A stretch of 64,000 bases of DNA, taken from assembly GCF_056746865.1 (NCBI RefSeq), contig NZ_CM163382.1. One strand, written 5' to 3'. Under the pieces are notes generated by a model that saw only the letters and a list, made by a program, of their open reading frames with translations, was not told the origin of the DNA and ran no database searches. Positions within the stretch are counted from its first letter, which is position 1. Each line of letters begins with the position of its first letter. Positions 1-55,918 of this stretch are shown piece after piece. The translations under genes and the position numbers were made by a program.

Positions 1-278
1 GTGGTATCTGGAATCTGTACACCCTGAACAACGGCGGGGCATTTATGGCACCCGAACCGGATGACGATGATGACGAAACATGGGTACTGTTCAATGCCAT
101 GAACGGTAACCGCGCTGAAATGAGCCCGGAAGCCGCCGGCATTGCTGCCTGTCTGATGACGTACAGTCATCATGCCTGTCGTACGGAGTGTTATGCCATG
201 ACGGTCCATTATTACCGGCTGCGGGATTACGCCCTGCAGCATCCGGAATGCAGCGCCATTATGCGCATCATCGACTGA
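1..278 (+). CDS. antirestriction-like protein (KlcA/ArdB-type), C-terminal part; 5' end lies upstream of the window
   Basis: Frame is open from the window edge to TGA at 276-278; acidic DDDDDE run; sits directly upstream of the radC-like/yeeT/cbeA module as in CP4-type prophage remnants. Family call is from context and memory, not a search. Confidence 0.4.
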   Translation, partial: GIWNLYTLNNGGAFMAPEPDDDDDETWVLFNAMNGNRAEMSPEAAGIAACLMTYSHHACRTECYAMTVHYYRLRDYALQHPECSAIMRIID

Positions 279-293
279 ATGGAGAGAAGTACA

Positions 294-770
294 ATGCAAC
301 AGCTTTCCTTTCTGCCCGGAGAGATGACGCCCGGCGAGCGCAGCCTCATTCAACGGGCCCTGAAAACCCTGGACCGCCATCTTCATGAACCCGGCGTGGC
401 CTTCACCTCCACCCGTGCGGCACGAGAATGGCTGATTCTGAACATGGCGGGACTGGAGCGTGAAGAGTTCCGGGTGCTGTATCTGAACAACCAGAATCAG
501 CTGATTGCCGGTGAAACCCTCTTCACCGGCACCATCAACCGCACGGAAGTCCATCCCCGGGAAGTGATTAAACGCGCCCTGTATCACAATGCCGCTGCTG
601 TGGTGCTGGCACACAATCACCCGTCCGGTGAAGTCACACCCAGCAAGGCAGACCGCCTTATCACGGAACGTCTGGTACAGGCACTGGGCCTGGTGGATAT
701 CCGGGTGCCGGACCATCTGATAGTCGGTGGCAGCCAGGTTTTCTCCTTTGCCGAATATGGTCTGCTTTAA
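294..770 (+). CDS. RadC-like JAB/JAMM-domain protein (YeeS/YfjY/YkfG family)
   Basis: ATG at 294 preceded by GGAGAGAAG; translation contains LAHNHPSGEVTPSKAD (HNHPSG JAMM-like motif); about 158 aa, typical for prophage radC-like genes. Confidence 0.85.
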   Translation: MQQLSFLPGEMTPGERSLIQRALKTLDRHLHEPGVAFTSTRAAREWLILNMAGLEREEFRVLYLNNQNQLIAGETLFTGTINRTEVHPREVIKRALYHNAAAVVLAHNHPSGEVTPSKADRLITERLVQALGLVDIRVPDHLIVGGSQVFSFAEYGLL

Positions 771-832
771 CCCGTCACAACCACATCACACCTGTTTTCA
801 CTTTTATCTTCTGTCTTCAGAGGTATCCCACT

Positions 833-1054
833 ATGAAAATCATCACCCGTGGCGAAGCCATGCGTATTCACCGTCAGCATCCGGCATCCCGTCTTTTTCC
901 GTTCTGTACCGGCAAATACCGCTGGCACGGCAGTGCTGAAGCGTATACCGGTCGTGAAGTGCAGGATATTCCCGGTGTGCTGGCCGTGTTTGCAGAACGC
1001 CGTAAGGACAGTTTTGGTCCGTATGTCCGGCTGATGAGCGTCACCCTGAACTGA
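833..1054 (+). CDS. DUF987 small protein (YeeT/YpjJ/YkfH family)
   Basis: 73-aa ORF in the conserved position between the radC-like gene and the antitoxin gene; length and sequence fit the YeeT family. Confidence 0.75.
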   Translation: MKIITRGEAMRIHRQHPASRLFPFCTGKYRWHGSAEAYTGREVQDIPGVLAVFAERRKDSFGPYVRLMSVTLN

Positions 1055-1216
1055 TGTTCCGTCACCCGGAAAACGAGTACGACTGGCAGAGCTCAGACGC
1101 CGCTGTGGATGAGGTCCTGCTCATCAACGAATACACCTTTACCGAAGCCGGTCTGCGCGCCGGCTGACCCGTCATCGTTAAACTATCATTCACCGATTTT
1201 CTGTGAGGATTTTATC

Positions 1217-1585
1217 GTGTCAGACACACTTTCCGGGACAACGCATCCCGATGACAATGACGACCATCCCTGGTGGGGACTACCCTGCACAGTGACGCCC
1301 TGTTTCGGCGCCCGTCTGGTGCAGGAGGGTAACCGGTTGCATTACCTTGCCGACCGTGCCGGTATCAGAGGCCGGTTCAGAGATGCGGATGCGTACCCTC
1401 TGGACCAGGCCTTTCCGCTGCTGATGAAACAACTGAAATTAATGCTCACCAGTGGTGAACTGAATCCCCGCCATCAGCATACCGTGACACTGTATGCGAA
1501 GGGGCTGACCTGTGAAGCCGACACCCTCGGCTCCTGTGGTTACGTTTATCTGGCTGTTTATCCGACACCTGAAACGAAAAAGTAA
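1217..1585 (+). CDS. type IV toxin-antitoxin system antitoxin, CbeA/YeeU family
   Basis: GTG start at 1217 in frame with track ORF 1109..1585 gives about 122 aa (MSDTLSGTTHPDDNDDHPWWGLP...), the size and N-terminus typical of YeeU/YfjZ/YafW antitoxins; followed by the start of a cbtA-like gene. Confidence 0.8.
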   Translation: MSDTLSGTTHPDDNDDHPWWGLPCTVTPCFGARLVQEGNRLHYLADRAGIRGRFRDADAYPLDQAFPLLMKQLKLMLTSGELNPRHQHTVTLYAKGLTCEADTLGSCGYVYLAVYPTPETKK

Positions 1586-1674
1586 ACCACCAGAATAACC
1601 TTCTGCTCCGGCCTGGTGTTTTCACCACGCCACTGTCCCATTTTTTATCTCTGCATATCAGGAAAATCTTCAGT

Positions 1675-1733
1675 ATGAAAACATTACCCGACACGCATGT
1701 ACGGGAGGTATCGTGCTGCCCGTCTCCAGTCAC
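1675..1733 (+). pseudogene. cbtA/yeeV-family toxin gene, 5' fragment (MKTLPDTHVREVSCCPSPVT) interrupted by the IS21-family insertion
   Basis: ATG at 1675 a short distance after the antitoxin stop; the first ~20 codons match the CbtA-family N-terminus, then the reading frame runs into the IS terminus at 1734. Confidence 0.7.
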
Positions 1734-1832
1734 TGCGTATTCCGCTCTATTCGATCACGGATTGGCATCGAAGTCCGATCAGCGATTCGCATCCATTCGA
1801 TCAACCGGGAACTTAACTTTTTCTACCGCTTT

Positions 1833-2588
1833 TTAACGCGTTTTTTCGCTGCTTTCCACTACCGGGGGATTTTTCCTCAGTGACTCTCCCTGAAGGACCA
1901 CCCGGTGTGAGTTATGTACCAGTCTGTCCAGGATGGCATCTGCTGTTGTTGGGTTCTCCATCAGACCATGCCATTTATCTACCGGGAACTGGCTTACCAC
2001 TATCGTGCTGCTTTGTCCGTAACGATCCTCTATGAGCTCCAGAAGGTCATTACACTGGGCGTTACTTAACTGTTCCAGCCCCAGATCGTCCAGGATTAGA
2101 ACCTGTATTTTTTGCAACTGTTTCAGATATTTCAGCCAGCTGCCATCAACACGTCCCTGAGCCAGTTGTTCCAGTAATCGCCCGGTTCTACAGTACCGGA
2201 CGCTGTGTTTCTGTCGACATGCCTGTTCGCCCAGCGCATTGGCTATCCAGCTCTTGCCACATCCTGTCGGACCGGTTATCAGCAGGTTTTTCCTGTGGGT
2301 TATGTAGTGGCCGTTCAGCAGTTCTCTCATCTGTTCAGCCCGCAGACCTCTTGAGGCCGGATAGCGCAGCCCTTCCGGTGTTGCCTGGTATTTCAGGCCG
2401 GCATTTTTTCTCAACCGTGCCACACGGCTGTTTTCCCTGCTCAGAAGCTCGTCATCAACCAGCAGCGTCAGCCTTTCCTCGAACGACAGTTCGTCGTAGG
2501 TCTGAGGCGTTTCCCGCTGCCGTATCAGGCTCCCGGCCATCGCCGGGAGTTTCAGTTGGGTCAGTTTGTTTAACAGGTTATCACTCAT
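1833..2588 (-). CDS. istB: IS21-family transposition helper ATPase IstB
   Basis: About 251 aa from ATG at 2588 (MSDNLLNKL..); Walker A motif GPTGCGKS and a DnaC/IstB-like AAA+ core; immediately downstream of istA. Confidence 0.85.
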   Translation of the reverse strand: MSDNLLNKLTQLKLPAMAGSLIRQRETPQTYDELSFEERLTLLVDDELLSRENSRVARLRKNAGLKYQATPEGLRYPASRGLRAEQMRELLNGHYITHRKNLLITGPTGCGKSWIANALGEQACRQKHSVRYCRTGRLLEQLAQGRVDGSWLKYLKQLQKIQVLILDDLGLEQLSNAQCNDLLELIEDRYGQSSTIVVSQFPVDKWHGLMENPTTADAILDRLVHNSHRVVLQGESLRKNPPVVESSEKTR

Positions 2589-2604
2589 ACTGTTGTTCCT
2601 TCTG

Positions 2605-4140
2605 TCAGTGGTAGTAGCCCGGACCACGCAGGTTTTCATGCTCTGAAGCATATGCCGGATGTTGTTCGCCCTGGCGGGATAATGGAAGCTCCAGGTTCTC
2701 CCGATGGTGACGCAGCAGATTGTCGATAAAGCGTCTGTCAGGGGCGTTATAGTGCAGGGCAACGTAACAGGCCTTTTCCAGCCGTTCCGGGCCGTATTTT
2801 TTCTGAAGTGCCAGCAGCCCCAGAACTGCACGATAAGCCAGTTCCGGATGGGGTTTTGCCTTCAGCATGGATTCAACCACCCGGCCTGTGGACGGGCCCG
2901 TACGTTTTCCCTGCTCGATCAGGCGTTCCGGTGTCCATGTCCCGTGCTGCCGGTGGCGCTCTGGCATGTGAAGCGGATTGGTTGTGTGTTTATATTCATG
3001 TGTGCTGCGCGGATGTTGCGCCACACACTGCCCCTTGTGCCAGAGCTGTACCACCGACTGCCCCGCCTTCAGTGACAGACGCTGACCGACCAGTTCGTGT
3101 GGAACGGAGTACCAGTGACGGGCATATTCAACGTGGTAGTCAGGGCCAACCTTCACAGCTTTGTATTCCGTGTATTCATAAGGTGCCAGAGGCAGCGGAG
3201 AGAGTGCTGGCGCATCCAGTATGCGGAAGCGTTCTGCACGGGTTTGATTGCCGTACCCCTTCATTGGCCGGTTATTCATGTCTGTCAGTAACTCCCTAAG
3301 GCGCGCATTCAGCGCCCTGAGCGTGTGGAAGGTTTCATTACGGATGCGGGCAAGAAGCCATCGTTCGACGATGAGGACGCCGTTTTCTGCTTTTGGTTTA
3401 TCTTTAGGTTTGCGTGGTCGGGCCGGGATGATAACCGTGCCATAGTGCTCAGCCAGTGCCTGATAACTGTCGTTGATGACAGGCTCATATCGATCGGCCT
3501 TTTTCACTGCGCTTCTGAGGTTATCGGGGATGAGCAGCTTCGGTACGCCGCCCAGGAAGGTCAGGCAACGGCTGTGGGCATTTAACCATGACATCATGTC
3601 CTGACCTTCGCACGCTTCAACGTAGGTATAGTTGGACGCCCCCATTACGGCCACGAAGATTGCCACGCGGCGTATCTCACCGGTGTCCGGATTAATAACA
3701 GGAACCGTAGGACCACAGAAGTCGATAAAAAGCTTTTCGCCGGCACGATGCTCCTGGCGCATGGAGAGACGTCGCGTTTTTTTCCACTCCCGGTAGCAAC
3801 GGCAGAAGTGCGAGTATCCCATCGCTTTGTTACCCGCCTGTGCCTTGTATTCCATCCACAACAGTTGCCGCGTCACACCTGGTTTTCTCATTTCCGTATC
3901 GAGGTACAACATGTCAGGCATTACAAGCTCTGATGCAAAGGTGTCTTTGGGCGGAAAAATGAGTTTCTCCAGCGTGTCATGGGATATATCAGCAGGTAAT
4001 GGCCATGACAGAGAAGAGGCTTTGAAGCGGGCAAGAACCTCAAAAACGGTTGAGGCGCTGATGTGTAACGTCAGTCCGATACAACGGTTAGTCAGCTTCT
4101 TGTCGAACTTGAGCTGAAGAATCTTAAAACAGGTTTCCAT
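2605..4140 (-). CDS. istA: IS21-family transposase IstA (HTH + DDE)
   Basis: 512-aa product from ATG at 4140 (METCFKILQ..) with AGGAG 5 nt upstream; N-terminal HTH-like region and central integrase/DDE-like region; followed 16 nt later by istB. Confidence 0.8.
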   Translation of the reverse strand: METCFKILQLKFDKKLTNRCIGLTLHISASTVFEVLARFKASSLSWPLPADISHDTLEKLIFPPKDTFASELVMPDMLYLDTEMRKPGVTRQLLWMEYKAQAGNKAMGYSHFCRCYREWKKTRRLSMRQEHRAGEKLFIDFCGPTVPVINPDTGEIRRVAIFVAVMGASNYTYVEACEGQDMMSWLNAHSRCLTFLGGVPKLLIPDNLRSAVKKADRYEPVINDSYQALAEHYGTVIIPARPRKPKDKPKAENGVLIVERWLLARIRNETFHTLRALNARLRELLTDMNNRPMKGYGNQTRAERFRILDAPALSPLPLAPYEYTEYKAVKVGPDYHVEYARHWYSVPHELVGQRLSLKAGQSVVQLWHKGQCVAQHPRSTHEYKHTTNPLHMPERHRQHGTWTPERLIEQGKRTGPSTGRVVESMLKAKPHPELAYRAVLGLLALQKKYGPERLEKACYVALHYNAPDRRFIDNLLRHHRENLELPLSRQGEQHPAYASEHENLRGPGYYH

Positions 4141-4372
4141 AGTGCTCCTGGATTTTCTCTTTCTGGACATTGACGTCTCCACTGGTTTAAACACGGCAAT
4201 GGAGACTGTGGTGAAAAGAGTTAATTCCCGGAGTGACTGGCAGGATGCCAATCAATGATCGGAAGCATGCCAAATCGTGATCGATTGTGATGCCAAACTG
4301 TGATCGGAGATGGATGCCAAATCATGATCGATTCGAATGCCAAACTGCGATCGATTCAGATGCCATTTTGCA

Positions 4373-4417
4373 GTCACCATCTGGCAGACACTGCTCACCC
4401 GGTTACTGGACCAGCAT
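4373..4417 (+). pseudogene. cbtA-family toxin gene, short continuation after the IS (..IWQTLLTRLLDQH), then unrelated sequence
   Basis: Removing the IS and one GTCAC copy restores ..PSPVTIWQTLLTRLLDQH in frame; downstream the sequence no longer encodes a CbtA-like protein (deleted or decayed). Confidence 0.6.
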
Positions 4418-5156
4418 TCCCTGATTTCCTCATCGATATCGAATAAGCACTCGTCGCAGAATTCTTTATCGAGTGAGAGCCTCTGTTCAAGGACGCTTCT
4501 TTTTTTTGTTGCAACGTGCACATCCCTTCATCTTTCCGCGCCTTTGTGACCTCGTGATTTGGGGTACATGGAAAATGGGCGTAGCAAGCCTCAGCTAGAT
4601 AACTAACCGTAATAAAAGGGCTTTTCTGCGAGCAATGTAAGAGAAGGATAACTAGGCAGGTTGCAAGAAAGATAATCGTTTTGATAGATCAGTTTATCGA
4701 TATTGATCGTTAGTGCCGATCGATAAGAAGTGCGGAAACGTTAGACTCACCTCTGTTGCTCCATCATGATGATGGGGCTGTTGGCCCTCGAATCTATCTG
4801 TCTATTAGCATCGGCATGACAAACACCATTTGTTTCCACAACAAAAGACAATAGAAAAGTACATATGTACAAAAAGTGTGATTTATTCTGTCACTTCAGT
4901 ACTTCCTTTCGCCTAAGTTTGCCCGTAATAATTCCCCGTGCAGTACTATTGTTGCGACATAACAACATGAATTACATGGTAATAATAGATGTTTTCCTCT
5001 GCTGATTCCTGTAAGGATCATGACTCCATACGACATCATTTTTAATTTTATACAGTTCAAAAAATCTACATGTGTCACAAATAATTTTACATTTGATAAT
5101 GTATAGTTGTCACATGACAAGTTGATTATCATTCTGTGTAGACAAGGAGAACTGTT

Positions 5157-6416
5157 ATGACGGATTCAATTCCATCAGGTTACAAGCCGCTGACATGTGA
5201 CACGCTGCCGGGTTATCTCTCGTCCAGACTGACCCCTTCATGCGAACCGGGAGGGTTACCTGAAGAGTGGAAAGTTTCAGAAGTGGGGGACGGAAACCTG
5301 AACATGGTGTTTATCGTTGAGGGGACACATAAAACCATCATTGTAAAACAAGCTCTGCCCTGGCTTCGTGCCGGGGGCGAAGGATGGCCTTTATCTCTGA
5401 GCCGTGCGGGCTTTGAGTACAACGTCTTATGTCAGGAAGCCAAGTACGCGGGTCACACACTGATTCCGCAGGTCTATTTTTACGACCCGGAAATGGCGCT
5501 GTTTGCCATGGAGTATCTGACTCCTCACGTGATTCTGCGTAAGGAACTGATTAACGGTAAAAAATTCCCTAAACTAGCTGAAGATATCGGCAGATTTTTA
5601 GCACAGACTCTCTTCAATACGTCTGACATTGGCATGTCAGCAGAACAGAAAAAAGCGCTTACTGCCGAGTTCGCGTTGAATCATGAGCTGTGCAAAATTA
5701 CGGAAGATCTGATCTTCACAGAGCCCTATTACAACGCTGAACGGAATAACTGGACTTCTCCTGAGCTGGACGATGCCGTCCATAAGGCCTGGGCTGATGT
5801 AGAGATGATCCAGGTTGCCATGCGTTATAAGTACAAATTTATGACAGAAGCGCAGGCATTGTTACATGGCGACCTTCATTCAGGCTCAATCATGGTGACC
5901 GACACGGATACCAAAGTGATTGATCCGGAGTTCGGTTTCATGGGGCCAATGGCGTTTGATATCGGCAACTATATTGGCAACCTCCTGCTGGCGTACTTCT
6001 CACGCCCTGGGTGGGATGCGAATGAGCAACGTCGCGCTGACTATCAGGAATGGCTGCTTCAGCAGATTGTCCAAACCTGGTCCGTTTTCACCCGGGAGTT
6101 CCGCCAGCTCTGGGACAACAAAACACAGGGCGACGCGTGGTCGACAGAAATGTATCAACAGAACAGGGCCGCTCTTGAGGACGCACAGGATCAGTTTTTT
6201 GCCACGCTGCTTGAAGATTCCCTGGTGAATGCCGGCATGGAAATGAATCGCCGGATCATTGGTTTTGCTGGCGTTGCCGAGCTGAAACAGATTGAAAATA
6301 CAGAGCTTCGCGCAGGATGTGAACGACGTGCATTGACCATGGCGCGCGATCTTATCGTCAATGCCCGCCAGTTTAAAAATATGGATTCCGTCATCCAGTC
6401 TGCGAAGGTTAAGTAA
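5157..6416 (+). CDS. mtnK: 5-methylthioribose kinase (MtnK-type sugar kinase of the APH/choline-kinase-like fold)
   Basis: 419 aa; RBS AAGGAGA 7 nt upstream; catalytic-loop LLHGDLHSGSIMV and IDPEFGFMGPMAFDIG motifs characteristic of MtnK. Confidence 0.8.
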   Translation: MTDSIPSGYKPLTCDTLPGYLSSRLTPSCEPGGLPEEWKVSEVGDGNLNMVFIVEGTHKTIIVKQALPWLRAGGEGWPLSLSRAGFEYNVLCQEAKYAGHTLIPQVYFYDPEMALFAMEYLTPHVILRKELINGKKFPKLAEDIGRFLAQTLFNTSDIGMSAEQKKALTAEFALNHELCKITEDLIFTEPYYNAERNNWTSPELDDAVHKAWADVEMIQVAMRYKYKFMTEAQALLHGDLHSGSIMVTDTDTKVIDPEFGFMGPMAFDIGNYIGNLLLAYFSRPGWDANEQRRADYQEWLLQQIVQTWSVFTREFRQLWDNKTQGDAWSTEMYQQNRAALEDAQDQFFATLLEDSLVNAGMEMNRRIIGFAGVAELKQIENTELRAGCERRALTMARDLIVNARQFKNMDSVIQSAKVK

Positions 6417-6425
6417 GAGGTCATT

Positions 6426-7541
6426 ATGAATATTAAAGGTAAACACTATCGTACGGTCTGGGTTTCCGGGGATGGAAAAGCGGTAGAAATCATCGATCAG
6501 ACTAAGTTGCCTTTTAAGTTCGAGGTGGTGGCGCTTACCTCTGCGGAAATGGCCGCTACGGCTATTCAGGATATGTGGGTTCGTGGCGCTCCGCTTATTG
6601 GTGTCGTTGCAGCCTATGGCATCGCGCTGGGAATGAATCACGATGCCAGTGACATGGGTCTGCAGCGTTACTATGACCTTCTTATCAAAACCCGACCAAC
6701 GGCAATTAATCTCAAATGGGCCCTCGACAGGATGATAGACACACTGAAGGATCTCTGTGTATCAGAGCGCAAGGATGTGGCCTGGGCGCTGGCGGCAGAA
6801 ATTGCCGAGGAAGATGTCGCGTTGTGTGAACAAATTGGATTACATGGTGCAGAAGTCATCCGCGAAATAGCCCAGAAAAAACCGGCCGGGAGTGTGGTCA
6901 ATATCCTGACACATTGTAACGCAGGCTGGCTGGCGACTGTAGACTGGGGAACCGCGCTTTCTCCCATCTACAAAGCGCATGAAAACGGAATCCCTGTTCA
7001 CGTCTGGGTGGATGAAACGCGGCCACGTAATCAGGGCGGACTCACGGCATTTGAACTGGGCTCACACGGTATTCCTCACACCCTGATCGCCGACAACGCG
7101 GGTGGCCACCTGATGCAACACGGTGACGTTGATCTCTGCATTGTTGGGACCGATCGAACCACGGCCAGAGGGGATGTCTGTAATAAAATTGGTACCTATC
7201 TTAAGGCGCTGGCGGCCCATGATAACCATGTTCCCTTCTACGTCGCGTTACCTTCTCCCACTATTGACTGGACTATCGAGGACGGAAAAAGCATTCCGAT
7301 TGAGCAACGTGACGGAAAAGAGCAGTCCCATGTCTATGGGATAAACCCTCAGGGAGAATTGAGCTGGGTCAATACCGCCCCTGAAGGAACCCGTTGTGGG
7401 AACTACGCTTTCGACGTCACGCCTGCCCGATACATTACCGGCTTCATTACTGAGCGGGGAGTCTGTGCTGCCAGTAAGTCAGCGCTGGCGGATATGTTTG
7501 CTGACCTGAAGAGTAAAGCACTCCAGGGGGAACAGCATTAA
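6426..7541 (+). CDS. mtnA: S-methyl-5-thioribose-1-phosphate isomerase (MtnA, eIF-2B alpha/beta/delta-like family)
   Basis: 371 aa; 9 nt after mtnK; eIF2B-like fold motifs ([31 protein letters not shown]). Confidence 0.8.
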
Positions 7542-7571
7542 AACAGCGGCCATTGCTATTAAGGATCAGGA

Positions 7572-8213
7572 ATGGAACGGATTAAGTTAGCAGAAAAAAT
7601 CATTTCCACTTGTCGGGAAATGAATGCGTCAGGTCTTAATCAAGGAACATCAGGTAATGTGAGTGCCAGGTATACCGGTGGCATGTTGATTACGCCGAGT
7701 GGGATCGCTTATTCAAAGATGACGCCGGACATGATTGTCTTTGTAGACGATAAGGGAAAACCTGAAGCGGGTAAAATACCATCAAGTGAATGGTTAATTC
7801 ATCTGGCGTGTTATAAAGCCAGACCAGAATTGAATGCTGTCATACATACGCATGCGGTGAATTCCACGGCGGTGGCAATACATAATCATTCAATTCCGGC
7901 CATTCATTATATGGTGGCGGTATCGGGGACGGATCATATTCCCTGTATTCCCTATTATACCTTTGGCAGTCCTGAACTGGCCGACGGTGTATCTAAAGGA
8001 ATCAGAGAAAGTAAGTCCTTGCTGATGCAGCACCACGGTATGCTGGCCATGGACGTCACGCTGGAAAAGACGTTGTGGCTGGCGGGTGAAACCGAGACGC
8101 TGGCTGATTTATACATCAAATGTGGCGGATTACATCACGATGTTCCCGTGCTGTCTGAAGCCGAAATGACCATCGTCCTTGAAAAATTCAAAACGTATGG
8201 TTTGAAAGCGTAA
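7572..8213 (+). CDS. class II aldolase (FucA-like); candidate 5-methylthioribulose-1-P / 5-deoxyribulose-1-P aldolase
   Basis: 213 aa, very similar in length and sequence to L-fuculose-phosphate aldolase (MER.KLA..II.TC.EM...GLNQGTSGNVS..., HTH.. metal-binding histidines); directly follows mtnK-mtnA. Confidence 0.75.
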   Translation: MERIKLAEKIISTCREMNASGLNQGTSGNVSARYTGGMLITPSGIAYSKMTPDMIVFVDDKGKPEAGKIPSSEWLIHLACYKARPELNAVIHTHAVNSTAVAIHNHSIPAIHYMVAVSGTDHIPCIPYYTFGSPELADGVSKGIRESKSLLMQHHGMLAMDVTLEKTLWLAGETETLADLYIKCGGLHHDVPVLSEAEMTIVLEKFKTYGLKA

Positions 8214-8316
8214 TTACAGCTTTATTTTAATTAATAACATATGACAGCCATTCGCAGAATGGCTGCTATTCCCTCTGTCCACAACGATTGATTATAACTA
8301 CCACAAGGAGTTATTT

Positions 8317-26173: not shown

Positions 26174-27368
<1,195 letters not shown>

Positions 27369-50761: not shown

Positions 50762-51223
50762 TTAAACAATAAGCTGCATAACCCAGATCGACAGCAATGC
50801 GTTAATCACGCAGACCGTAATGATATGCGGGTAATATTTGGCATTCACTTCGGCTGTCCCCAGGCAGCGACCGACATTTTGCACCGGGTTGCCCATTAAA
50901 TACATCGCGGGCAGTAAAACGGTGACATCGTGACCGGTTAATGCGCCAGCGGTTGCCAGACTGGCGGCAACACCGACTGCGCCACCCATACTCATTAATG
51001 CGGCTAAAAGGACGGTTGCCGCTTCACCGGGTAATCCCCACAGCGCCATTACGGGTTCACAGATATGCCCCACCCAGTCGAGCAGGCCGGTAATTTTCAG
51101 CGCCTGAATGATGACAAACGCCATCACCACGTTTGGCAGCAGGTTGGTCGTGGCGATAGTAAAGCCACGGCGCGCGCCATCGATAAACATATCCATGACG
51201 TTTTTGCGGACCTGAGTTGTCAT
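50762..51223 (-). CDS. yjiG: inner-membrane protein YjiG (SpmB-like, nucleoside-recognition-domain family)
   Basis: 153-aa hydrophobic protein; start overlaps the yjiH stop. Confidence 0.85.
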   Translation of the reverse strand: MTTQVRKNVMDMFIDGARRGFTIATTNLLPNVVMAFVIIQALKITGLLDWVGHICEPVMALWGLPGEAATVLLAALMSMGGAVGVAASLATAGALTGHDVTVLLPAMYLMGNPVQNVGRCLGTAEVNAKYYPHIITVCVINALLSIWVMQLIV

Positions 51224-51903
51224 GCTTGCGCTCCTTGCGTTGGGTTGCGACGTTCTTCGAAGTTAAGCCAGACGCGCAAAATGTTGGCTCCGACAAATTT
51301 AAACACCAGGATGACGGCTAAAGGTACGATTACGGACGTGCCCAGAAAGGCAAACACCGCGACGCCGGAAGAGAAGTAGTTGGTGATGATGGCGCTACCG
51401 CTGGTTTGATATGCGGCGAAAATCACTTTATCGCGTTCGGTAATTTCACCTTCCTGCGCCAGCTCTTTGGTCATACCGGCGGCGGCATCGGTGTTTTGCA
51501 GGTTAGCGATCAGCGCCAGCGAGCAGATCCCTGGAATGCCCAACAACGGTTTTAGCACAGGTGTCATTAACTGCTGTGCGGCGCGTAATCCACCAAGACC
51601 ATCGGTAATTGAAATAATCCCCAGAGAGAGAATGACTGACGGTGCCAGCTCCAGCGCAAAGAGAAAGCCATCTTTAGCCCCCGCGCCACCCGCGCCGCGA
51701 AATGAGGTGGTGGCTCCGTTCGCACCAGGCAGTTGCCCAAACGATCCGTTCAGAACGGAAAAATCAAAAACGCGCCACCAGCTGTCTGTTCCGGAAAAAA
51801 CACCGGAAAAAAAGATTATGGTGAGAAAAAAGGCCAGATACCCTTTAATGCCCACTTTTTCTGTCGCCAGCTCCCCGGCTACAGCATCCCCTTGTTGTGT
51901 CAT
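51220..51903 (-). CDS. yjiH: inner-membrane protein YjiH (SpmA-like, nucleoside-recognition-domain family)
   Basis: 227 aa from ATG at 51903 (MTQQGDAVAGELATEK..). Confidence 0.85.
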   Translation of the reverse strand: MTQQGDAVAGELATEKVGIKGYLAFFLTIIFFSGVFSGTDSWWRVFDFSVLNGSFGQLPGANGATTSFRGAGGAGAKDGFLFALELAPSVILSLGIISITDGLGGLRAAQQLMTPVLKPLLGIPGICSLALIANLQNTDAAAGMTKELAQEGEITERDKVIFAAYQTSGSAIITNYFSSGVAVFAFLGTSVIVPLAVILVFKFVGANILRVWLNFEERRNPTQGAQA

Positions 51904-52152
51904 AACAATCCCCATTGTTTTTTTGTGTTTGTGTGTTGCTTGAGCCAGGAAAATTCCTGGAACTGAAAAACCTTATCAGCCATGTGGGTATGGGGAAAAT
52001 GCAAGTATGTTTCTGGCTATGCGTTTTTTGCATAGCGGAAAAATTACGCTGTGTGGAAAAGGCTCTGCGCAGGATTGAGTTGCAGAAAATTCATAAACCA
52101 AGTGACAATGACATCAGTAAATAAAAACAGAAAATCCAGGGACGAAAACGAG

Positions 52153-52707
52153 ATGGCAAAGTACAACGAAAAAGAGCTGGCGGATACGAGCAAGTTTTTA
52201 AGTTTTGTCCTCCGACACAAACCGGAGGCGATTGGTATCGTACTGGACCGTGAAGGATGGGCGGATATCGATAAGCTCATACTTTGTGCCCAAAAAGCGG
52301 GCAAGCGGTTAACCCGTGCATTGCTGGATACTGTGGTTGCCACCAGCGATAAAAAGCGTTTTAGTTATTCCAGTGATGGTAGGTGCATCCGCGCGGTTCA
52401 GGGGCATTCGACTTCGCAGGTCGCTATTTCCTTTGCCGAAAAAACACCGCCACAGTTTCTCTACCACGGTACGGCAAGCCGTTTCCTTGACGAGATAAAA
52501 AAACAGGGGCTGATTGCAGGTGAGCGTCACTACGTACATCTCTCTGCTGATGAAGCAACGGCACGCAAAGTGGGAGCAAGACACGGATCGCCGGTTATTT
52601 TAACCGTCAAAGCACAGGAAATGGCGAAACGAGGCCTCCCTTTCTGGCAAGCGGAAAACGGGGTCTGGCTGACATCAACGGTTGCGGTTGAGTTTCTTGA
52701 GTGGTAA
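52153..52707 (+). CDS. kptA: RNA 2'-phosphotransferase (Tpt1/KptA family)
   Basis: 184 aa from ATG at 52153 ([25 protein letters not shown]..); Tpt1-family signature residues including HGT and an R/H-rich active site. Confidence 0.9.
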
Positions 52708-52719
52708 GGGAAACTTCCC

Positions 52720-53898
52720 TCATGAAGTGACCACTTGTAGCTTAAATAATTGCACTGTGCTGATAAGCGCAGCAATAAACAACGCCGCCGCGCCGCAGAG
52801 AGTGGCGCTGGCAAGCGCCGATGTTCCATTGCTGAGCATACTGGTCAGCGCCGGGCCGAGGATTTGCCCAATGCCGTAAATGAGCGTCACAAAGCCTAAA
52901 AGATTGAGATTTCCCGGTACGCTCAGTTGGCGGGCGATAGTCATCACCAGAGATGTCGTGCCCATAAAGGTACCGCCAAAACCAAGACTGCTGATGATAA
53001 GCAAGAGAGGCGAGTCGCTGGCGAGAGTAAGCAGCACACAGATAGCCTGCACCAGCAAATTCGCCGTCAGGCAGGGCAAAGCCCCCCAACGTTTTGCTGC
53101 CCATAGCCAGCCAAAGCAACCAGGCACAATTGATAAGCCGACTAACGTCCAGAGATGGGCGGTTAACAATGGTGAGCCTGCATCTTTCGCCATGAGCGGC
53201 AGGTAAGTCGCGACGATGATATAACCAAATCCCGCCAGGCCGTACAGAATAGCCAGTAACCACCAGCTCATTATCTGTTGCTCCGTTTTTGCCAATGGCA
53301 TTGTTGTGATGGCGTGTTTTTTCGAGGGCATTAAAAGCGTAAGTGCAATCAGCATCATGCCAGAAAGCGCCCCGGCGCCTTGCCATAACGTTTGCGAGGA
53401 GAGGTCAAAATGCAGGCCTGCCAGAACATATTCATTGCCCAGTGCGATGCCAATGCCAACGCCAGAAAACAAAGCTGCCAGCACAAAAGGATGGCGCGTG
53501 TGCTGCATAATCAGCGTCGAACCAAAAATCAGCATACCGGCGCTGGCGACACCCGCCAGGACGCGAATCAATAACACCAGAATAAATGGCGGCAACCATG
53601 CCATTGCGAGGATCAACAACCCGCTCGCCAGGGCAGAAGCCAACAGAAATGGGCGCAGGCGCGATGGCTGGTGAAATGCGCCAAAAGAAAATAGCAGACT
53701 GCCAGCCAGATACCCCGCATAGTTGCCGCTGGCAATCCACGAGAGCTGGCTAAATGAAAACGATCCTTCCGCCATCATGACGGGCAACATAGGCGTATAA
53801 AGGAAGCGGCCTAAACCCATACCTAAGGTCAGAACCAGCATCCCGAAAAGCGCGGTGCTGAAAGAAAAGCGTTCTACGGGATGCGTGGACGAAGGCAT
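52720..53898 (-). CDS. yjiJ: MFS-type transporter YjiJ
   Basis: 392 aa; about 12 predicted transmembrane segments. Confidence 0.85.
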
Positions 53899-53965
53899 GT
53901 TTAACCTTGTTTGTCATTTTTGTTGTTAACAAGTTAATAACAAAAAGGTGAAGCATGCCAGCCTG

Positions 53966-55918
<1,953 letters not shown>

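Follow-up and report, generated by a model that had tools for sequence, protein, structure and literature searches.

KptA, a solitary Tpt1-type RNA 2'-phosphotransferase of Escherichia coli with a possible role as a conditional eraser of RNA 2'-phosphates

The kptA locus and the encoded protein

The 64,000-nt stretch of DNA that was analysed, referred to here as the window, carries the gene kptA on its plus strand at positions 52153-52707. [quoted passage not shown] Both the open reading frame listing and a direct reading of the sequence place the ATG start at 52153 and the end of the stop codon at 52707, and the RefSeq annotation is exactly the same 555-nt CDS, named kptA. The 1001-bp region around the gene is 100% identical in E. 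coli strains FDAARGOS_497 and FS1576, in which the CDS is also kptA. The gene in the window is the very gene of E. coli KptA (YjiI), and there is no difference of substance between the window protein and RefSeq entry WP_001151855.1. The published properties of E. coli KptA, namely removal of internal RNA 2'-phosphates, complementation of yeast tpt1-delta, the effects of the tetrad mutants and the non-essential knockout, should therefore carry over. Elsewhere in E. coli, alleles with 1-7 changed residues occur, and some strains have a 194-residue form with a different C-terminal junction.

Upstream of kptA and divergent from it lie yjiH, yjiG and iadA, which code for two Gate-domain membrane proteins and an isoaspartyl dipeptidase, and then hypT. 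The genes yjiG and yjiH, considered here for context only, occupy 50762-51903 on the minus strand and are part of a conserved yjiH-yjiG-iadA unit. The intergenic region between yjiH and kptA (51904-52152) is 249 bp long and is the presumed location of the kptA promoter. It contains one sigma-70-like site on the plus strand (ATGACA-16-GAAAAT, 52108-52135), which is not significant because 0.8 sites are expected there by chance. Terminator-like sites were no more frequent than in the shuffled expectation, and the Rfam search gave zero matches across 51000-54000. On the other side, yjiJ (52720-53898, minus strand; also context only) codes for an MFS_4 transporter and is convergent with kptA, with 12 bp between the two stop codons. 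It is followed by yjiK, which encodes an SdiA-regulated-domain protein, and by ytiA, yjiL/yjiM, yjiN and mdtM. In E. coli strain 4621 iatD takes the place of yjiJ, which is thus no obligate partner of kptA. The rest of the window contains the mtnK/mtnA island with IS elements, the yjh/sgc genes, nan, fim, gntP and uxu, and the genes from iraD through yjiT; no RNA-repair, ligase or kinase gene was found elsewhere in the 64,000 nt. The G+C content of kptA (50.8%) matches that of the window (49.3%) and so gives no hint that the gene was imported recently.

The assignment of the protein to its family is clear. Pfam family PF01885 (PTS_2-RNA; RNA 2'-phosphotransferase, Tpt1/KptA family) matches KptA with an E-value of 3.2e-47 and scores 161.3 bits, well over its cutoff of 26; the alignment joins residues 10-175 to positions 4-176 of the 177-position profile. 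The NCBIfam equivalog NF002012 covers the ATG-started protein completely (residues 1-184 of 184) and scores 427 bits, the cutoff being 233. The phage protein family phrog_5470 of PHROG also matches (E 3e-63). Among sequences in the Protein Data Bank the best match is Runella slithyformis Tpt1 (7kw8, E 4.7e-44, 173 residues aligned), and Clostridium thermocellum Tpt1 (6e3a/6ede) is found at an E-value of 2e-33. A longer in-frame reading frame of 218 residues, beginning with the GTG at 52051, was rejected since NF002012 and RefSeq both fit the 184-residue form. Three open reading frames on the minus strand (52044-52343, 52309-52584 and 52530-52829) overlap the conserved CDS and are treated as incidental.

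The catalytic Arg-His-Arg-Arg tetrad was located by a HMMER alignment of KptA to Runella Tpt1. All four residues are present: Arg16, His17, Arg64 and Arg119 of the Runella enzyme correspond to Arg21, His22, Arg69 and Arg125 of KptA. Arg21 and His22, the first half of the tetrad, are encoded by CGA CAC at 52213-52218, Arg69 by CGT at 52357-52359 and Arg125, the fourth residue, by CGT at 52525-52527, all on the plus strand. In an alignment of 21 sequences, comprising homologues of 41-85% identity and including four phage homologues, the tetrad is invariant down to 41% identity, and so are Lys67, Gln83-Gly84-His85-Ser86 and His105-Gly106-Thr107. The last of these, the HGT motif (52465-52473, plus strand), lies in the NAD+-binding lobe, which has the ADP-ribosyltransferase fold; throughout the TRPT1 enzymes this motif is described as the binding site for the adenosine ribose of NAD+ (PMC10415124). 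Alanine substitution at each of the four tetrad residues of KptA abolishes function (Sawaya 2005, as cited in PMC6097658). The R64A mutant of Runella Tpt1 accumulates the 2'-P-ADPR intermediate (PMC6097658), and by analogy Arg69 of KptA would be important for the second step, the transesterification.

An AlphaFold2 model of KptA, built on the 21-sequence alignment, has a mean pLDDT of 94.2 and a pTM of 0.83. When the model was compared with the Protein Data Bank using Foldseek, the top 21 matches were all Tpt1/TRPT1 proteins, the best being C. thermocellum Tpt1 (6e3a) with a TM-score of 0.87 and an rmsd of 1.8 Å. The predicted structure has the two-lobed fold of the family, with an N-terminal winged-helix RNA lobe and a C-terminal NAD+ lobe of ADP-ribosyltransferase type that contains the HGT motif. 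Judged by sequence and model, all the computationally testable features that define the Tpt1/KptA family are present. The original prediction had described an intact 184-residue Tpt1-family protein next to membrane transporters and the yjiLM system, and had raised the loss of conserved catalytic residues as the event that would tell against it. The reading frame, PF01885, NF002012 and RefSeq all agree with the first point, the surroundings (yjiG/yjiH and iadA upstream; yjiJ, yjiK, ytiA and yjiL/yjiM downstream) are as described, and Arg21, His22, Arg69 and Arg125 are all kept. It can be regarded as practically certain, for identity and chemistry taken together, that the feature is kptA and that it encodes a stand-alone, catalytically competent enzyme of the Tpt1 family.

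Retention, loss and distribution of kptA

Of 5426 complete E. coli genomes, 5390 (99.3%) carry the 1-kb kptA region, and in 5388 of these at least 80% of it is present. Against three divergent E. coli alleles (93.3-98.6% nucleotide identity), all with an intact tetrad, the dN/dS ratio of kptA is 0.04-0.08. A ratio of 0.08 was obtained against a 74%-identical orthologue (P0022), which lies in a fully syntenic contig of Escherichia type with the gene order hypT-iadA-yjiG-yjiH-kptA-yjiJ-yjiK-ytiA-yjiL-yjiM. Therefore kptA is maintained by selection in E. coli proper and is no decaying relic. Among the eight genes of the locus that were compared, dN is highest for KptA.

Nevertheless, kptA is dispensable in places. 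A scan of a genome collection for kptA relatives (at least five loci) was non-systematic, and the cases it provided are anecdotes rather than a survey of distribution. At least three other Escherichia lineages (L011-L013) have three different deletions, each of which removes most of the gene. In E. coli MB64 a deletion extends from iraD into kptA. Two further alleles are broken, one (P0050) by a frameshift upstream of Arg125 and the other (P0021) by the substitution R21L together with an internal deletion. The deletions are independent across Escherichia lineages.

Homologues were sought in a set of 5.8 billion proteins, and the named matches among the best 120 were considered. Matches of at least 80% identity are from Escherichia and are followed by a few at 66-74%, P0022 being one of these at 74%. 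The next named relatives, at 62-66% identity, are from Budviciaceae, Superficieibacter, Xenorhabdus and Erwinia persicina, and after them come betaproteobacteria. Salmonella, Klebsiella and Enterobacter are absent from the named matches in the best 120. A kptA locus labelled Citrobacter (L009) is a 4-kb metagenome-assembled contig, and it is probably a mis-binned contig of E. coli.

The neighbouring genes have a distribution of their own. Orthologues of YjiH are 84-85% identical in Salmonella and [Enterobacter] lignolyticus and 74% identical in Citrobacter freundii. The yjiH-yjiG-iadA unit exists without kptA in Salmonella, [Enterobacter] lignolyticus and Citrobacter, and in the latter two it is found in unrelated contexts. 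The Salmonella locus has the order yjiN-yjiJ-(870-bp gap)-yjiH-yjiG-iadA-hypT and is devoid of kptA, yjiK, ytiA and yjiLM. Homology between the gap and the E. coli locus is limited to ~120 bp adjoining yjiH (~51920-52036 in the window), and no remnant of kptA was detected between yjiJ and yjiH even at an E-value of 10. Because the gap contains no such remnant, an insertion in the Escherichia lineage and an ancient loss in Salmonella are indistinguishable.

The neighbours of kptA homologues in Leminorella, Superficieibacter, Erwinia and Methylobacillus share nothing with those in E. coli or with each other, and none of the genes beside the homologues in these four genera is an RNA-repair gene. 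Because the neighbours differ in this way, kptA is a solitary gene without a conserved partner. KptA homologues, 40-46% identical, are also encoded by 98 phage genomes, most of which are jumbo phages of Erwinia, Dickeya, Klebsiella, Serratia and Yersinia, together with large phages of C. difficile. In the four phage loci that were inspected, the KptA proteins are the sole homologous proteins. The genes adjacent to kptA in these four phages are unannotated, and apart from a sub-threshold hint of an HD-type phosphodiesterase and a radical SAM protein, Pfam searches assigned none of them to a family; over about 4 kb around the gene, the phages share neither a ligase nor a kinase as a conserved partner. 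Thus the view that the position of kptA offers no functional clue, which was taken at the outset from the E. coli sequence, is extended to four genera and four phages. The defence models of PADLOC-DB v2 gave no match at E <= 0.01 for KptA, YjiH, YjiG, YjiJ or YjiK.

Possible substrates and roles of KptA

Removal of internal RNA 2'-phosphates by E. coli KptA has been demonstrated in vitro, the two-step, NAD+-dependent reaction being the same as that of yeast Tpt1, and the enzyme complements yeast tpt1-delta (PMC6097658). The enzyme also erases the 2'-phosphate of U47 of tRNA in E. coli cells that express the archaeal kinase ArkI (PMC9095486). The kptA knockout has no apparent phenotype (PMC6182162). 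The published experiments thus establish the chemistry for the E. coli enzyme itself, and the present sequence comparison and predicted fold support it; in the reaction, the internal RNA 2'-phosphate attacks C1'' of NAD+. Papers up to 2025 agree with the original prediction that the natural substrate in E. coli is not established. Its background on the removal of the 2'-phosphate left by tRNA ligation should be updated to include the erasure of 2'-phospho-U47 (PMC9095486) and the use of NADP(H) by archaeal Tpt1s (PMC10622864). Annotation and biochemical characterisation of the gene, and the recognition that its role is puzzling, go back to 1998, and papers as late as 2025 repeat the question. 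The identity of kptA and the question of its orphan substrate are thus already known, and the sequence context gives no new handle on them.

A search for RNA-repair genes elsewhere in the genome had been proposed. In NZ_AP036058.1, a genome with an identical kptA region, rtcA-rtcB-rtcR are located at 3.49 Mb and thpR, the gene of an RNA 2',3'-cyclic phosphodiesterase, at 161.5 kb; none of these makes an internal 2'-phosphate. E. coli is thus equipped with RNA-repair enzymes, but RtcB, the ligase found in this genome, seals to clean junctions, and the products of ThpR are RNA 2'-monophosphate ends (cited in PMC10622864). Thus neither supplies the internal 2'-phosphate that KptA is good at removing. 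E. coli has neither a fungal-type ligase nor an Ark1-type kinase (PMC10622864), and both ArkI and the U-p-47 mark are absent from it (PMC9095486, PMC10622864). As regards the fungal and plant pathway of Trl1 ligase and Tpt1, no ligase gene is present near kptA in the window. The genes of the Runella-type cluster (ligase, HD-Pnk, Tpt1 and MTase-HIT) were found neither beside E. coli kptA nor beside its homologues in the four other genera.

No housekeeping pathway of E. coli gives rise to internally 2'-phosphorylated RNA. The likeliest role for KptA is therefore a conditional one, in which it would erase or repair internal RNA 2'-phosphates whose occurrence is only sporadic. Such phosphates might come from RNA 2'-kinases or 2'-phosphate-leaving ligases of phages and other mobile elements, or from an unrecognised repair route. 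This role is ranked highest because the removal of internal 2'-phosphates is the sole activity at which E. coli KptA is known to be efficient, and because selection on the gene is strong. Furthermore, the gene behaves as an accessory one, with no knockout phenotype, a patchy distribution, recurrent loss and phage-borne homologues. Several observations stand against it. Internally 2'-phosphorylated RNA has never been reported in E. coli, which has no fungal-type ligase and no Ark1 kinase (PMC10622864); RtcB, RtcA and ThpR make no internal 2'-phosphate; PADLOC gives no match; phage kptA genes have no conserved ligase or kinase partner; and no RNA-repair neighbour exists in the window or in the four genera. 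The physiological proposal is accordingly tentative, its chances being put slightly short of even, and the whole package of identity, chemistry and conditional-eraser role is about evenly balanced between right and wrong.

It is possible, if rather doubtful, that the internal 2'-phosphate is installed in a conflict, for instance by 2'-kinases or 2'-phosphate-leaving ligases encoded by phages, plasmids or toxins, and that KptA is a stand-alone immunity or repair eraser. Such a conflict would account at once for four observations: selection is purifying, the knockout shows no phenotype in the laboratory, the gene is patchily distributed in Enterobacterales, and homologues occur in jumbo phages of related hosts. 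The occurrence of kptA in 98 phage genomes and of Runella Tpt1 in an RNA-repair cluster was counted as making the setting plausible. In a variant of this proposal, the product ADPR>p would itself be the signal.

The main rival to an RNA substrate, although an unlikely one, is that the true substrate of KptA in E. coli is NADP+ or NADPH, the enzyme tuning the NADP(H) pools or making an ADPR>p signal. Archaeal Tpt1s convert NADP(H) and NAD+ quantitatively to NAD(H) and ADPR>p, the pA2'p moiety of NADP+ is bound by the RNA lobe just like the junction nucleotide, and NADP+ is also a ligand of Runella Tpt1 (PMC10622864). When foreign Tpt1s are purified from E. coli, ADP-ribose-1''-phosphate comes with them (PMC10622864, PMC6573784), which indicates that some endogenous phospho-substrate exists in E. 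coli. Moreover, kptA is solitary, without an RNA-related partner, and in several bacteria it lies in operons of NAD+/ADPr metabolism, according to a review (PMC8120803). However, the reported reaction is slow, requiring 20 uM enzyme for hours (PMC10622864), and the precedent is archaeal and not E. coli KptA. Nor is a general metabolic role easily reconciled with a gene that Salmonella and other close relatives lack, that has been lost repeatedly and whose knockout has no phenotype.

It is improbable that KptA acts as a one-step ADP-ribosyltransferase which reversibly modifies RNA or DNA by capping their 5'-monophosphate ends with ADP-ribose. Such 5'-phospho-ADP-ribosylation has been demonstrated for Streptomyces coelicolor SCO3953 and human TRPT1 (PMC6582358), and several archaeal Tpt1s and C. 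thermocellum Tpt1 also cap 5'-phosphates (PMC6182162). A review credits E. coli KptA with the activity as well (PMC8120803), but the passages of its primary source that mention KptA describe SCO3953 and TRPT1 only, and not the E. coli enzyme (PMC6582358). Runella Tpt1, which of the solved structures is the nearest to KptA in sequence, is inactive in capping (PMC6182162), and the physiological relevance of the modification has been called unclear and possibly promiscuous (PMC11833690).

The possibility of a terminal clean-up is close to refuted and must be considered very improbable. On such a route, a toxin endoribonuclease would leave a 2',3'-cyclic phosphate, ThpR would open it to a 2'-phosphate and KptA would remove the latter. 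The presence of thpR in the genome with the identical kptA locus, its 2'-monophosphate products, the removal of terminal 2'-phosphates by a subset of Tpt1 enzymes (PMC6573784) and a KptA-2H-Macro route proposed from comparative genomics (PMC9503650) speak for it. However, terminal 2'-phosphate removal was undetected for E. coli KptA (Steiger 2001, as cited in PMC6573784), and Runella Tpt1 is ineffective in this reaction (PMC6573784). Furthermore, kptA and thpR are unlinked, lying at about 4.50 Mb and about 0.16 Mb of the chromosome, respectively. In addition, rtcA is present, and RtcA can re-cyclise 2'-phosphate ends for RtcB.

That kptA is functionless in E. coli, as a horizontally acquired or relict gene drifting to loss, is suggested by the lack of a knockout phenotype (PMC6182162), the Salmonella site without a remnant, the deletions and broken alleles (L011-L013, MB64, P0050 and P0021) and the high dN, but it is highly unlikely, since the dN/dS of 0.04-0.08 at shallow and deep divergence argues strongly against it and the tetrad is intact in all examined full-length alleles, the retention in complete E. 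coli genomes is 99.3% and the G+C content bears no mark of recent import.

The comparative results modestly sharpen the question of the substrate. The strong purifying selection, the lack of a conserved partner, the absence of the gene from the syntenic Salmonella locus and its recurrent loss together tilt the role of KptA towards a conditional or accessory rather than a housekeeping one. The finding would matter only if the orphan-substrate question were solved. Should E. coli, the bacterium studied more than any other, turn out to have endogenous internal RNA 2'-phosphates or ADPR>p signalling, this would bring to light a previously unrecognised way of modifying or repairing RNA, or a new second messenger.

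Comparison with known Tpt1 systems

Saccharomyces cerevisiae Tpt1 shares with KptA the PF01885 domain, the Arg-His-Arg-Arg tetrad and the two-step NAD+-dependent chemistry, and KptA can replace it in yeast. The sequence similarity between the two is low (PDB 7yw4, E 7e-10). Yeast cannot do without Tpt1, whose substrate is defined and is produced by the Trl1 ligase, whereas kptA is dispensable in E. coli, where both a ligase of this kind and tRNA introns are lacking.

SCO3953 and human TRPT1 resemble KptA in their family, their NAD+-binding lobe and the first step of their reaction, the attack of a phosphate on NAD+. In contrast, the side-activity documented for them ends after step 1, at 5'-phosphate ends (PMC6582358).

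By sequence, the closest relative of KptA with a solved structure is Runella slithyformis Tpt1 (7kw8). [quoted passage not shown] The genomic settings are different. Runella Tpt1 is part of a putative four-gene RNA-repair cluster (ligase, HD-Pnk, Tpt1 and MTase-HIT), whereas in E. coli kptA stands alone, flanked by genes for membrane proteins.

The KptA/Tpt1 of Thermococcus kodakarensis (PDB 9ld3-9ldi) is an eraser of 2'-phospho-U47. Its fold is shared with the KptA model (TM-scores of 0.83-0.87) and its tetrad is the same, although the two sequences are only about 32% identical. T. kodakarensis encodes the writer kinase ArkI and carries the U-p-47 mark, whereas E. coli has neither; nevertheless, E. 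coli KptA erases the mark if ArkI is supplied.

Remnants of kptA and the site lacking it in Salmonella

The gene order hypT-iadA-yjiGH-[kptA]-yjiJK is conserved, and most of kptA (52153-52707, plus strand, in the window) has been removed from it by at least four independent deletions that differ from one another. Three of these are in syntenic loci compared here as L011, L012 and L013, in each of which the kptA match lies at about position 10001; the fourth is in E. coli MB64 (L030, 3001-3318), where everything from iraD to the middle of kptA is gone. The residual fragments are of different extents. KptA residues 113-184 remain in Escherichia sp. MOD1-EC7003, residues 1-54 and 166-184 in 'E. 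coli' SCPM-O-B-8794, and only residues 165-184 in E. whittamii. Among these deletions, the endpoints fall recurrently within kptA or next to it.

The corresponding site in Salmonella enterica (ABJBQU010000005.1; L026, 5130-6000) is an 870-bp gap between yjiJ and yjiH, which is AT-rich (43% GC) and in which neither a called gene nor a KptA remnant was found. The genes yjiK, ytiA and yjiLM are likewise not present at this Salmonella locus. The site without kptA may be explained either by an insertion in Escherichia or by an ancient loss in Salmonella.

The kptA-yjiJ junction and strain variation around it

In E. coli strain 4621 (L029, 3254-3838 and onward; protein P0006) the kptA product is 194 residues long, with a C-terminal extension of 10 residues (...EWSFMPTGVQKQ), and the next gene downstream is iatD, which encodes an inverse autotransporter and stands in place of yjiJ. 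Because iatD replaces yjiJ and KptA is extended in this strain, the 3' end of kptA is a junction with a variable region. When the window (51220-53898) is compared with L015, a single strain pair, yjiH and kptA have dS values of 0.26-0.27 and yjiJ has 0.027, and the abrupt shift falls on the kptA/yjiJ boundary. The jump in this one pair suggests that the convergent kptA/yjiJ junction is the site of a recombination breakpoint.

The window differs from the K-12-like strain FS1576 by an IS5 element inserted in yjhR (about 26174-27364) and by another island at its start (1-9263, about 9.3 kb), which carries mtnK/mtnA, sugar-transporter and IS genes. The 1.5-kb segment 26000-27500, which takes in the whole IS5 insertion in yjhR, has 100% identity in FDAARGOS_497 and two further strains. 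Among the complete genomes searched, strain E21 alone covers the first 9.3 kb in full. The ytiA gene (54891-55148, minus strand), located between yjiK and yjiL and encoding an 85-residue Se/S-carrier-like protein (PF11823), has an intact reading frame in the window, and its copy in FS1576 is annotated as a frameshifted pseudogene. The start of yjiH (51903-51915, minus strand) is ambiguous: the ATG at 51915 gives 231 residues and the RefSeq start at 51903 gives 227. The ambiguity is minor and lies across from the kptA promoter region, on the other strand.

KptA homologs in other settings and reported activities

A 2021 review (PMC8120803, citing Munnur 2019) states that 5'-phosphorylated RNA is robustly ADP-ribosylated by E. 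coli KptA. In that primary paper (PMC6582358), the passages on 'KptA' describe only the S. coelicolor homolog SCO3953 and human TRPT1. Crediting the E. coli protein with the 5'-phosphate activity may be an error.

Homologs of KptA with 40-46% identity are encoded by 98 phage genomes (examples are at L018 5980-6543, L019 5971-6552 and L021 5980-6516), mostly those of jumbo phages of Erwinia (61), Dickeya, Klebsiella, Serratia and Yersinia; none of the 98 is an Escherichia-named phage. In the four phages compared, the genes beside kptA are uncharacterized and differ from phage to phage. On a Methylobacillus metagenome contig (L008, 8001-16603), a kptA homolog with 63% identity and an array of orphan contact-dependent-inhibition toxin/immunity modules are separated by about 1 kb. 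Among these modules are ImmE5 and a tRNA anticodon nuclease domain of the Colicin_E5 type. KptA is here a neighbor of tRNA-cleaving toxins, perhaps by coincidence.
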